In this document: positions 4,800-6,457 of the stretch, piece by piece
How the letters are laid out: each line of letters starts with the position of its first letter
How positions within the stretch are numbered: position 1 is the stretch's first letter
Source of the DNA: a virus
Lineage: Duplodnaviria; Heunggongvirae; Uroviricota; Caudoviricetes
Length of the DNA stretch: 8,021 nt
Virus record (IMG/VR): IMGVR_UViG_2778261358_000014
Direction: 5' to 3' (one strand)
Translations under genes and position numbers: made by a program
The notes under the pieces: model-generated
Databases searched by the model: none
Seen by the model: the letters and a program-made list of their open reading frames with translations, nothing else
Told to the model about the DNA's origin: nothing

Positions 4800-5017
4800 A
4801 ACCCCCCCTCCCCATTTTCACAATCAGCAACAAGAATATTTTTAGCGTCATTCAGCGACCGCGTGGCGGTGTATCGGATACATTCCAGGGCGAACAATGT
4901 GTATTCTTCCCGTTCTTCCTTTTGTGCAAGCCCTGCTGTGCATTCAATATCAATAAGCGCATGCATCAGCGTAGTGAGCGCGGCGGCTGCTGCGTCCGGT
5001 GTGGTTTTATTGCACAT
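4772..5017 (-). CDS. Hypothetical small protein (81 aa)
   Basis: Internal ATG at 5017 preceded by AGGAGG (6-nt spacer). It overlaps the stop of the upstream repeat-containing ORF, suggesting coupling. The ORF track's upstream extension to 5059 lacks an RBS. Confidence 0.5.
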   Translation of the reverse strand: MCNKTTPDAAAAALTTLMHALIDIECTAGLAQKEEREEYTLFALECIRYTATRSLNDAKNILVADCENGEGGLCVMIVLIP

Positions 5018-5567
5018 GGCACACCTCCTGACGAATACGGGCGGCGAATACAGCAACACAACCGGACGGGCAACGGCTACGTGCTTCGCGTTCCGTCCAG
5101 GCGGTTACGTGGATGATTTGATGTTCTGACGCGCCAAAGATGATAAAGCGCCAGAGAAAGGCGGTTTGAGAATGTACAAGGGTAGGGATAGTAGCCATGT
5201 TGGCAGCCTCCTCAGTGTGGTTAAGATAACCGCCACCGGAAACGCCAATTTCGCTGGTGGCGGACTGTACAGGGTTGGCGTAACCGGACACTGAAGAAAC
5301 CGGCGCGGATTGCTCCGCCCCCGTACAGCCCACCATTGATAAGGTGTGACTATGCGGCACAAAAAAACACGCGGGGCGCGTGTTATGCGCTTCAGTTTTG
5401 CCCAGGACGCCAATCCCGGCACCCGTTTTATGAGGTGCGCGGGAATCATAGCTATTTTCGACACTGGCGATCAACTGGTTTTTTTCTCCGATATTCAGGG
5501 CCAGAAAACGCCACACAAAGGCCGTTTGTGTGTGTACAAGGTGTGGTATATGATTTACGGCAACCAT
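5007..5567 (-). CDS. Repeat-containing open frame (186 codons) with two RBS-preceded in-frame starts (5567 and 5198); may be one protein, two paralogous small proteins, or a partly noncoding leader
   Basis: AGGAG + ATG at 5567 and AGGAGG + ATG at 5198. The paralogous N-terminal segments (M..IPxLVH[ST]QTAF[LV]WRF) differ mostly at third codon positions. An intrinsic terminator sits inside the frame at 5357-5384. The ORF track's 409-aa extension beyond 5567 is rejected. Confidence 0.3.
   Translation of the reverse strand: MVAVNHIPHLVHTQTAFVWRFLALNIGEKNQLIASVENSYDSRAPHKTGAGIGVLGKTEAHNTRPACFFVPHSHTLSMVGCTGAEQSAPVSSVSGYANPVQSATSEIGVSGGGYLNHTEEAANMATIPTLVHSQTAFLWRFIIFGASEHQIIHVTAWTEREARSRCPSGCVAVFAARIRQEVCHVQ
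5357..5384 (-). terminator. Strong intrinsic terminator on the minus strand, about 210 nt downstream of the leftward promoter
   Basis: Stem AACACGCG / CGCGTGTT (8 bp, GC-rich, 3-nt loop, plus-strand 5366-5384) followed on the minus strand by a run of seven U (plus-strand A-run 5361-5367). Confidence 0.55.
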
Positions 5568-5596
5568 AACGGCTCCTAGTTTACGTTGTTGGTTAG

Positions 5597-5638
5597 ACGC
5601 CCCGTATGTGTTCCCAGCACTGCGGGGCGTTGATTTTT
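5597..5638 (+). terminator. Hairpin plus T-run on the plus strand (terminator-like); its complement also forms a 5' leader hairpin of the leftward transcript
   Basis: Stem ACGCCCCG / CGGGGCGT (5597-5604 / 5623-5630) with an inner 5-bp helix, followed by TGATTTTTGTG. It sits 18 nt after the stop of a plus-strand ORF (5352..5579) that is antisense to the leader ORF. Confidence 0.4.
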
Positions 5639-5655
5639 GTGTAATGGCAAGTACA

Positions 5656-5704
5656 ATGGTAATTACCATGTAGGTATAGTAATGAAGGGTAATTACCATG
5701 TCAA
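5656..5704. promoter_or_regulatory. Switch region: leftward sigma70-like promoter (-35 TTGACA, 17-bp spacer, -10 TACTAT) overlapped by two palindromic operators (ATGGTAATTACCAT and GGTAATTACC)
   Basis: Minus-strand TTGACA corresponds to plus 5699-5704 and TACTAT to plus 5676-5681, with an exact 17-bp spacer. The perfect 14-bp palindrome is at 5656-5669 and a 10-bp palindrome at 5688-5697, centres 30 bp apart. A plus-strand TATAGT (5675-5680) shares the -10 region. Confidence 0.5.
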
Positions 5705-5871
5705 CACCATTAGAAAAACGTTCGCCTCCATACCAAATGCGATTACCGGAAGACTTCAGAGCGCAGCTAGAAGAAGCAGCTAAGGCCGATGGCGACACAT
5801 CTTTAGCCACTTGGATTAAACGCGTTCTCCGCAAAGAATTACAGCAACGCGGCATAGAACCCAAAGGATAA
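5698..5871 (+). CDS. Ribbon-helix-helix (Arc/MetJ/CopG-type) DNA-binding protein, 57 aa; candidate island repressor. Not in the ORF track
   Basis: Translation MSTPLEKRSPPYQMRLPEDFRAQLEEAAKADGDTSLATWIKRVLRKELQQRGIEPKG has the Arc-type pattern (beta-strand MRLPEDF, then two helices). AAGGG RBS upstream. Palindromic operators lie immediately upstream. Divergent from the replication operon. Confidence 0.65.
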   Translation: MSTPLEKRSPPYQMRLPEDFRAQLEEAAKADGDTSLATWIKRVLRKELQQRGIEPKG

Positions 5872-5928
5872 AAACTATCAGCGCCGTGGTGTGAGGTATT
5901 ACGGCGCATTGCTATGCAGGACAACACA

Positions 5929-6102
5929 ATGACCGATAAAGAATTGACCAAAACATTATCACCGGCACGGAAAAGACGGCGCAGAAAGATAGAGCATGAA
6001 TCAGAAAGATTCGCGCCATGTGCTTTTGCCCTTGAGCAATTCCTTAAAGAGTACAGGGAAAAGCGCTCATTGCAGGTATGGCAACGAACTGAACCAGACT
6101 GA
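5929..6102 (+). CDS. Hypothetical small basic protein (57 aa) downstream of the RHH gene
   Basis: ATG at 5929 preceded by AGGAC (7-nt spacer). R/K-rich stretch (SPARKRRRRK). Same transcription unit as the RHH gene, ending at the terminator at 6198. Coding status uncertain. Confidence 0.3.
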   Translation: MTDKELTKTLSPARKRRRRKIEHESERFAPCAFALEQFLKEYREKRSLQVWQRTEPD

Positions 6103-6197
6103 TTGCATTGCCCACCAGCCTGATAGCGGCTATCATCCCCGTGCTTATGTTTGGGATCACATACACATAAGGCGCAGCGGGTTAATTGTTCAGAAAG

Positions 6198-6224
6198 GCG
6201 GCTCCATATCGGGGCCGCTTTTTT
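6198..6224 (+). terminator. Rho-independent terminator between the convergent RHH unit and alpA, possibly bidirectional
   Basis: Stem GCGGCTCC / GGGGCCGC (8 bp including one G-U pair, 5-nt loop) followed by TTTTTT (6219-6224). The alpA stop is at 6251 on the opposite strand. Confidence 0.65.
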
Positions 6225-6250
6225 CGTGTTTGTCATATCTGTGATACCCG

Positions 6251-6457
6251 TTAAGCAGCCGTTCCGCGTGCTTCCTCTTCGCGTTCTTTCTGCCAGGACA
6301 ACACATCATCCTCATACCATCCGCGACGGCGTAAACCAACGCGAAAACCCTGCGGAAATTCTCCGGCGTTGATCATGCTTTGCAGCGTGCTGTCTGCCTT
6401 GATGTGGATAATTTTTTTTACTTCCTGGCGAAAGATAATTTTTCTGATTGCTTCCAT
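6251..6457 (-). CDS. alpA: AlpA/Vis-family transcriptional regulator (excisionase-like MerR-type HTH), 68 aa
   Basis: Motif ...LQSMINAGEFPQGFRVGLRRRGWYEDDVLSWQ matches the AlpA signature (FP...G.R..GW.E.DV..W). RBS AAGGT upstream of ATG 6457. Located next to a P4-type integrase, as in P4 (Vis) and CP4-57 (AlpA). Confidence 0.8.
   Translation of the reverse strand: MEAIRKIIFRQEVKKIIHIKADSTLQSMINAGEFPQGFRVGLRRRGWYEDDVLSWQKEREEEARGTAA

Follow-up and report, generated by a model that had tools for sequence, protein, structure and literature searches.

Why should a phage satellite carry the start of one small gene twice, in the same reading frame and with an intrinsic terminator in between? The question is raised by an 8,021-nucleotide stretch of DNA (the window; IMG/VR record IMGVR_UViG_2778261358_000014, Caudoviricetes), which is the early control region of an Escherichia coli phage satellite, a phage-inducible chromosomal island (PICI) or P4-like island at tRNA-Pro. 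Here we show that a self-contained RNA cassette of the P4/P1 type sits in frame inside the satellite's icd gene, which resembles P4 kil, and we consider what the start site left upstream of the cassette may do.

The repeat was located by a repeat search of the window, which aligned 5145-5190 with 5505-5550 on the minus strand as a direct repeat with 76% identity over 46 nucleotides, bearing out a tandem repeat reported in a first-pass annotation made from the sequence alone. The probability of at least 35 matches in 46 anywhere in a 900-nucleotide region is ~7e-7, and a 24-nucleotide core (CAAACSGCCTTTSTSTGGCGYTTT) occurs in the window only as the two copies (0 of 200 shuffles). The ribosome-binding site and ATG that had been placed ahead of each copy can likewise be read from the sequence. 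In the upstream copy (copy B), AGGAG at 5577-5573 is separated by 5 nucleotides from an ATG at 5567-5565, and in the downstream copy (copy A), GAGGAGG at 5213-5207 precedes an ATG at 5198-5196. The start-to-start distance of the copies is 360 nucleotides, or 120 codons, and both ATGs share one frame that stays open until a stop at 5007. Over 48 aligned nucleotides (5552-5505 and 5192-5145) the copies differ at 13 sites, with 4, 2 and 7 of these on codon positions 1, 2 and 3. An excess of third-position differences had been claimed; its direction stands but its significance does not (binomial p 0.10, chi-square p 0.23), so that the bias between the copies is weak and no more than suggestive.

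An RNA cassette inside icd

Islands with and without the cassette account for the repeat. O157-type islands, found in O157:H7 and other strains, have the same promoter, operator palindromes, leader, Shine-Dalgarno (SD) sequence and copy B. In these islands copy B opens an uninterrupted icd of 65 amino acids (MVAVNHIPHLVHTQTAFVWRFLALSAGESQIIHVTAW...), and exactly 360 nucleotides, corresponding to 5483-5124, are absent; two loci (H3 and H4) accordingly span 526 nucleotides where the window spans 886. The stand-alone Icd-like gene of the O157 locus L002 is an intact 65-amino-acid open reading frame (ORF), and the window segment 5484-5600, comprising the leader and the icd 5′ end, is 96.6% identical to the start of stand-alone Icd-like coding sequences in other E. 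coli genomes. A 161-nucleotide query spanning copy B and the cassette junction matched 741 of 5426 complete E. coli genomes. The match runs across the junction, with copy B joined to the cassette, in 143 of the 741, and in a spread sample of the remaining genomes the annotation has a stand-alone Icd-like gene beginning there.

These comparisons identify copy B as the 28-codon 5′ remnant of a resident icd allele, ending at 5484 and keeping its promoter, leader, SD and ATG (the SD and ATG are 100% identical in the working allele), and copy A as the beginning of a second, complete icd brought along by the cassette. The repeats thus have the protein-coding origin that had been proposed for them, as the 5′ ends of two icd alleles; they are alike, with slightly more third-position differences, because these alleles diverged as working genes. 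The comparisons further show that the cassette behaves as a module reaching from promoter to start codon, with its left boundary fixed, that some otherwise identical islands have and others lack; at its right end it carries the SD, ATG and first codons of an icd gene. An origin of the O157-type icd by simple deletion, through a crossover in the 46-nucleotide repeat, was rejected, since its codons 22-28, which lie beyond the repeat core, are B-type.

The 360 nucleotides between the repeats are very probably an immunity cassette of the P4/P1 type, with a promoter, an IsrK/seqA RNA, a C4/CI RNA and C4 targets over the icd SD (Table 1). The predicted internal promoter has invariant hexamers in 13 satellite loci, whereas its 18-nucleotide spacer varies in sequence but is constant in length, which is the usual signature of a working promoter; the 5′ end of IsrK lies 6 nucleotides past its -10 element. 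IsrK contains the b1 site (5416-5407), a1 (~5396-5390) and an intrinsic terminator (stem 5384-5366 followed by a U-run). This 3′ hairpin of IsrK is the terminator that the first-pass annotation had correctly placed within the frame. A sub-threshold match to the Rfam c4-a1b1 model overlaps IsrK. In C4, the a′ loop (~5297-5288) and a single-stranded b′ region (~5287-5272) are complementary to b1 within IsrK and to b2 and a2, and the a2 site (5218-5209) overlaps the SD (GAGGAGG) of the Icd-like gene. The C4-IsrK duplex (-28.1 kcal/mol; inverted repeat I8) and the C4-a2/b2 duplex (-24.6 kcal/mol) are the two best in the transcript.

Among 16 homologues, compensatory changes occur in 14 of the 28 C4 pairs and almost none is broken. 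A supposed degenerate third copy of the repeat (NPVQSAT, 5266-5285) falls within the 3′ half of this C4 stem, and since the stem pairs show compensatory changes we regard it as a stretch under RNA constraint and not as a peptide paralogue. Two further readings of the repeats were discarded. They are not RNA targets of the P4 seqA/seqC type, as the C4-complementary sites lie elsewhere (5416-5407, 5248-5236 and 5218-5209), nor are they iterons or protein-binding sites, as the core is present just twice in the window. Between C4 and the copy-B start region only weak complementarity was seen by eye (~7 of 10 positions, with wobbles). A long-range anti-terminator pairing of the leader hairpin (5598-5641) with the IsrK terminator (I1, I2) was also dismissed as GC-rich complementarity arising by chance, given that islands without IsrK have this leader hairpin too, and a global fold of the 479-nucleotide leader region gave nothing beyond the Rfam structures.

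The cassette is also found next to other genes. In e14-like prophages (L021, L023 and L024), which carry an 'ash family protein' coding sequence, the same IsrK-C4 cassette is followed by the same first codons (MATVPAL) and then by a quite different, non-Icd gene, so that the module seems to end on the right about 7 codons past the start of its first gene. Locus L015 has a second full C4 match (75.2 bits, 2257-2344) downstream of icd, inside a called gene of 155 amino acids. A tblastn match in Yersinia phage vB_YpM_44 was set aside: it reflects the RNA genes only, its frame is broken and the downstream gene is not Icd-like.

Table 1 Features of the icd region and its upstream control sequences in the window
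Feature	Position	Strand	Basis or remark
Icd-like (P4 Kil-like) ORF, 63 amino acids + stop	5007-5198	-	NCBIfam NF033153; PGAP Icd-like in the near-identical locus L001
Eta-like/'Ash' ORF, 186 amino acids + stop; starts at copy B, spans the two RNA genes and ends with icd	5007-5567	-	
Copy A: ATG 5198-5196 and repeat core 5192-5145	5145-5198	-	Start of the complete 63-amino-acid Icd/Kil-like gene
Copy B: ATG 5567-5565 and repeat core 5552-5505	5505-5567	-	First codons of a truncated icd allele
SD (AGGAG) of copy B	5573-5577	-	Serves the intact icd in L002 too
In-frame 360-nucleotide cassette	5124-5483	-	Absent from otherwise near-identical O157-type islands (alignment)
Internal promoter, P4 PLE equivalent (predicted)	5445-5474	-	-35 TTGATC 5474-5469, 18-nucleotide spacer, -10 TATGAT 5450-5445
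IsrK/P4 seqA-type RNA	5362-5438	-	Rfam RF01394, 66 bits (gathering score 50)
C4 antisense RNA, P4 CI RNA homologue	5253-5340	-	Rfam RF01695, 77.6 bits (gathering score 45)
a2/b2 (seqC-like) C4 targets	5207-5248	-	b2 5248-5236, a2 5218-5209; inverted repeats I6, I7
Upstream promoter-like site	5676-5704	-	TTGACA-17-TACTAT, 10/12 matches; would transcribe copy B; activity predicted
17-nucleotide element, two copies, palindromic core ATGGTAATTACCAT	5655-5671 and 5685-5701	.	Repeat family D2, inverted repeat I3
Arc/RHH (YlcI/YnfO-like) repressor gene	5698-5871	+	phrog_228 Arc-like repressor, E 1.5e-6

Open frame and peptide of the upstream start

The copy-A ORF matches the NCBIfam model NF033153 over its whole length (57 bits, cut-off 25, profile positions 1-48 of 48; P4 Kil scores 76 bits with the same model) and is nested at the 3′ end of the 186-amino-acid ORF that begins at copy B. 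The copy-B fragment of the window gave no match to the Icd-like model, and a longer upstream remnant in locus L011 reaches 38 bits over positions 1-32 only. The 186-codon frame corresponds to an Eta-like ORF with a truncated Icd copy as its N-terminus and a complete Icd/Kil-like protein as its C-terminus. It is matched by three annotation families without demonstrated protein function. Pfam PF10554 (Phage_ASH) covers residues 40-133 (63.3 bits, threshold 26), a segment that is window 5450-5169 and takes in the promoter -10, IsrK, C4 and a2/b2; phrog_29966 of PHROGs covers residues 1-186 (E 6e-110); and NCBI names such ORFs 'Ash-like/host cell division inhibitor Icd-like protein'. The conservation of the Phage_ASH 'protein family' may be in large part RNA conservation made visible by translation. 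Downstream, the next ORF (ATG 5017, with AGGAGG ahead) overlaps the icd stop by 11 nucleotides (5007-5017, minus strand), which suggests possible translational coupling of icd or Eta to the genes that follow.

A protein search returned 774 Ash-Icd fusion ORFs, whose N-termini are icd remnants of 44, 28 (the window), 25 or 18 (+3) codons; in the 44-codon type, …WRFIALSTAQPRVITIEATSEQEARQ is joined to KNQLIA…. All remnant types are joined in frame at one left boundary, an A-run before the -35 element. Intact Icd alleles of 65-68 amino acids exist for the other remnant types, and allele P0121 is 100% identical to a 44-amino-acid query modelled on the long upstream remnants. The relevant loci on viral contigs, found by DNA pattern and not selected by ORF, number 25; the frame is continuous from the promoter region to the Icd C-terminus in 24 of them, and the exception (L030) has a frameshift inside IsrK. 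The cross-species sample is made up of the protein database and these viral contigs, as species-representative genomes gave one related locus only. In the commonest remnant type (14 of the 25 loci), MLNHTTHPQGRDSHNLNKAGM is joined to KNQLIA and the WRF core is lost altogether.

Among seven long copies of the upstream remnant, variable columns fall on codon positions 1, 2 and 3 as 9, 6 and 11 (p 0.48), compared with 11, 10 and 33 in the downstream icd (p 8e-5). The ratio of nonsynonymous to synonymous variation (pN/pS) in the ORF frame is ~0.5 for the remnant and 0.26 for the downstream icd, and in the other two frames of the remnant it is ~1.2. The first-pass annotation had called for such a comparison of substitutions by frame; the pN/pS of the ORF frame leaves room for some coding constraint on the remnant, and the codon-position bias is not significant. 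Because remnant lengths vary, the junctions are always in frame and no significant codon-position bias is seen, the remnant peptide looks dispensable while the start site and the frame look maintained. Constraint on copy B as a protein today, as had been argued, is not supported by these variable sites and changing lengths; past divergence of functional alleles explains the third-position pattern between the two copies. The long frame is not obligatory, given that it is frameshifted in L030 and that in the P4-like locus L020 icd is out of frame with the Ash frame.

Two alternatives had been offered for the product of this frame. Two short paralogous peptides are excluded for copy B, which meets no stop for 186 codons. 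The other, a protein with an internal repeat under termination control, comes close, in the form of the Eta-like frame; its control element is the known IsrK/seqA-C4/CI antisense RNA module and not a leader-peptide attenuator.

Proposed ribosome escort and competing explanations

The immunity region of phage P4 (PLE-seqA-CI-seqC) has the same order on the same strand, with an internal promoter, seqA/IsrK, CI/C4 and a target over the SD. In P4, as here, a small Icd-family ORF (63-65 amino acids across both) forms the last part of a longer ORF whose start precedes the internal promoter, and an alpA/vis homologue lies upstream. The P4 region is further characterised by Rho-dependent termination (timm) within kil, which translation relieves, and by processing of CI by RNase P and PNPase. 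Our scan of the P4 genome placed the IsrK and C4 matches (seqA and CI RNA) inside eta (8168-8812), the last 65 codons of which are kil; CI scores 74.9 bits against RF01695. In agreement with this, CI has been described as located within eta; transcripts from the internal constitutive promoter are terminated via CI-seqA interaction and yield CI, Kil is made on read-through only, and full-length Eta is translated only from the upstream promoter, its translation preventing termination (PMC10111431). The C4 and isrK Rfam models also match Gram-negative PICIs (PMC10111431). The two systems differ in that the N-terminus of P4 Eta is unrelated to Kil, and a search for an internal repeat in P4 Eta itself found none, whereas here a truncated icd paralogue creates such a repeat. 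In addition, seqA and CI are ~107 nucleotides further apart in P4, an Arc-like repressor gene, with putative operators that are palindromic, stands on the opposite strand between alpA and the module here but not in P4, and downstream replication involves a RepA-type helicase here versus the alpha primase in P4.

Two other systems share parts of the design. The immI region of P1 and P7 (a1b1-c4-a2b2-icd-ant), on which the Rfam C4 and c4-a1b1 models were built, has the same C4 a′/b′ loops, targets before and after c4, and an icd-like first gene with a C4-masked SD. It belongs to a plasmid prophage in the case of P1 and not to a satellite, and to our knowledge a long ORF spanning c4, as here, has not been described for P1. 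Unlike in P1 immI, no Ant, KilA or Bro match was returned by Pfam or NCBIfam for the ORFs that follow icd; in L001 PGAP annotates this part as hypothetical proteins, a DUF4222 protein and the RepA helicase. The isrK-orf45(STnc1160)-anrP region of Salmonella Gifsy-1 likewise has an IsrK small RNA whose own terminator stops most but not all transcription, followed by a C4-like RNA; an ORF that overlaps this second RNA is translated, and the next gene depends on it for its expression. IsrK has been recognised as a structural homologue of P4 seqA, and orf45/STnc1160, which lies over an RNA likened to P4 CI RNA, is translated and required for downstream expression (PMC4825925). In Gifsy-1, where short IsrK also has an activating action in trans, a separate 45-amino-acid frame is coupled to an antirepressor gene, whereas the frame here is fused to icd and extends to the upstream start.

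Known biology explains most of this feature, which follows the regulatory design of phages P4 and P1 and departs from it in one small respect; the ORF family is already known from PHROGs and NCBI naming. The new detail is an Eta-like ORF that begins with a truncated icd paralogue, which it does because the cassette sits inside icd; we found no paper describing such a start. Seen in this way, three labels used for E. coli satellites, namely 'ash family protein' for pseudogenes, 'Icd-like' called twice over and the Phage_ASH domain of Pfam, come down to one known design, in which a small toxin-like gene harbours an in-frame RNA immunity cassette.

We consider it probable that this in-frame cassette, combined with ribosome escort from the upstream start, is the best overall explanation of the locus, and on balance we favour a regulatory role for the copy-B ATG. 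The mechanism we propose is modelled on P4 eta/kil and Gifsy-1 isrK-orf45, with promoters, C4 processing and anti-termination taken from homology and sequence. Transcripts from the internal promoter would lack the upstream start codon and would end at the IsrK terminator or, by read-through and processing, yield C4, which would pair with a2/b2 over the icd SD, block translation and keep the downstream replication genes off, giving the immune state. On transcripts from the repressor-controlled upstream promoter or from alpA, ribosomes could load at the ATG at 5567 and cross IsrK, C4 and a2/b2 into icd and then the next ORF. Such ribosomes would prevent the terminator and C4 pairing from acting and would exclude Rho, so that upstream-started transcripts would be insensitive to C4-dependent immunity. 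Selection would then preserve a start site and an open frame and would not act on the Icd-like peptide that copy B encodes. If the frame is indeed maintained, the P4 eta principle of translation as anti-termination extends to a large satellite family.

Several points weigh against this explanation. The promoters, the processing of C4 and anti-termination by translation are predicted from homology and sequence, and a ribosome following the polymerase does not necessarily silence an intrinsic terminator, in contrast to a Rho-dependent one. The in-frame junctions amount to about four types (roughly p 0.04) in loci related by descent. The remnant pN/pS of ~0.5 leaves room for protein-level constraint or for repeated import from intact alleles, the frame is interrupted in L030 and L020 as described above, and the direction of the event can be read in two ways, as insertion of the cassette into icd or as unequal recombination between islands.

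A competing reading is that copy B is purely a recombination scar, a dead icd 5′ fragment left by modular exchange between satellites, with an open frame that is inherited or accidental and plays no regulatory part. The remnant does look eroded, with lengths of 18, 25, 28 or 44 codons and no significant codon-position bias; its four nucleotide differences from the intact allele cluster by the junction, and three of the four change amino acids. The broken frames of L030 and L020 and the absence of an Icd-like N-terminus from P4 Eta would also fit a scar. It is harder to see why a dead fragment should be in frame in all four junction types and in 24 of the 25 loci found by DNA pattern, or why its SD and ATG should have stayed identical to those of the working allele, and in P4 nonsense mutations in eta lead to termination (Forti et al. 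1999, summarised in PMC10111431). We therefore regard a pure scar as rather unlikely, though it is the strongest competitor of ribosome escort.

We think it improbable that the 186-amino-acid product is itself active, for instance as a division inhibitor or killer that is stronger or under different regulation, with copy B under protein selection. The 774 fusion ORFs and their dedicated PHROG family, the contrast in pN/pS between the ORF frame and the others, the FxWRF core kept in several diverged remnants, and a long upstream remnant that exceeds the Icd-like cut-off at 38 bits are what such a protein would lead one to expect. Yet the commonest remnant type lacks the WRF core, the remnant of the window itself has no Icd-like match, the middle 94 residues (Phage_ASH) are what results when two covarying RNA genes are translated, and the apparent constraint can be inherited from intact donor alleles. 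Least of all do we credit classical leader-peptide attenuation or two independent small peptides, in which translation of a copy-B peptide would decide terminator formation: an SD and ATG do stand upstream of an intrinsic terminator and a hairpin (5532-5512) lies within copy B, but there is no stop between 5567 and 5007 to make a short peptide, the terminator belongs to a separately promoted small RNA with a conserved promoter between it and copy B, the copy-B hairpin is also present in the intact icd allele of islands without the terminator, and no run of regulatory codons is evident in the translated frame, anti-terminator pairings not having been searched systematically.

Upstream control region and the extended open frame

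The gene order of the island is int, alpA, the Arc-like repressor gene (on the other strand), icd, DUF4222, the RepA helicase gene, terS and a capsid gene. The ATGGTAATTACCAT palindromes flank or overlap the upstream promoter-like site and the start of the divergent Arc-like gene, and are likely to be operators of its product. Against the NCBIfam model YlcI_YnfO_N the Arc-like gene has an E value of 0.0014, which is under the model cut-off; PGAP annotates YlcI/YnfO family genes at its position in L003, L008 and L009. In the near-identical locus L001 PGAP does not call the gene and has an 'Icd-like' pseudogene on the opposite strand instead. This arrangement looks like a putative repressor-operator switch upstream of the RNA cassette, which would place protein control and RNA control one after the other in the island. 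Islands with and without the cassette form a natural experiment on how protein repression and RNA immunity are combined in PICI-like satellites.

It is also possible, and we put this forward tentatively, that selection keeps a stop-free frame of 400-600 codons purely for ribosome escort of transcripts started upstream. Such a frame would extend from the alpA stop into icd, passing the repressor gene in antisense and crossing the eroding icd 5′ fragment and the two RNA genes on the way; the fragment would serve as a portable ribosome-loading site, and escort would carry transcripts past Rho, the IsrK terminator and C4. If true, this would be a 'translated spacer' with an irrelevant peptide, and the Pfam Ash family would be largely a shadow of RNA genes. 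The 222-amino-acid upstream part of the long frame has no PHROG match.

In the window the Eta-like frame is open from an ATG at 6236, just past the alpA stop (alpA, 6251-6457), to the icd stop, a total of 409 codons, and is antisense to the Arc-like repressor gene and to a second plus-strand gene. The latter, a 62-amino-acid ORF at 5914-6102 that is absent from the L001 annotation, matches phrog_21027 of unknown function (E 1.6e-15) and likewise lies antisense to the long minus-strand frame. For a wider comparison, the interval between alpA and copy B (5568-6250, 683 nucleotides) was set beside L003, L013, L015, L018, L019 and L025-L053. The interval in the window has 0 stops in this frame versus 10 and 20 in the other two, and five other loci with different upstream sequences have 0 stops over 661-1010 nucleotides. 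Synonymous recoding of the antisense genes alone leaves 0 stops in 2-34% of trials, and the stop-free frame is for this reason only a moderate signal. In three loci it is another frame that is nearly free of stops. Many of the 25 viral-contig loci have at least 230 open codons upstream of the internal promoter, and up to 607.

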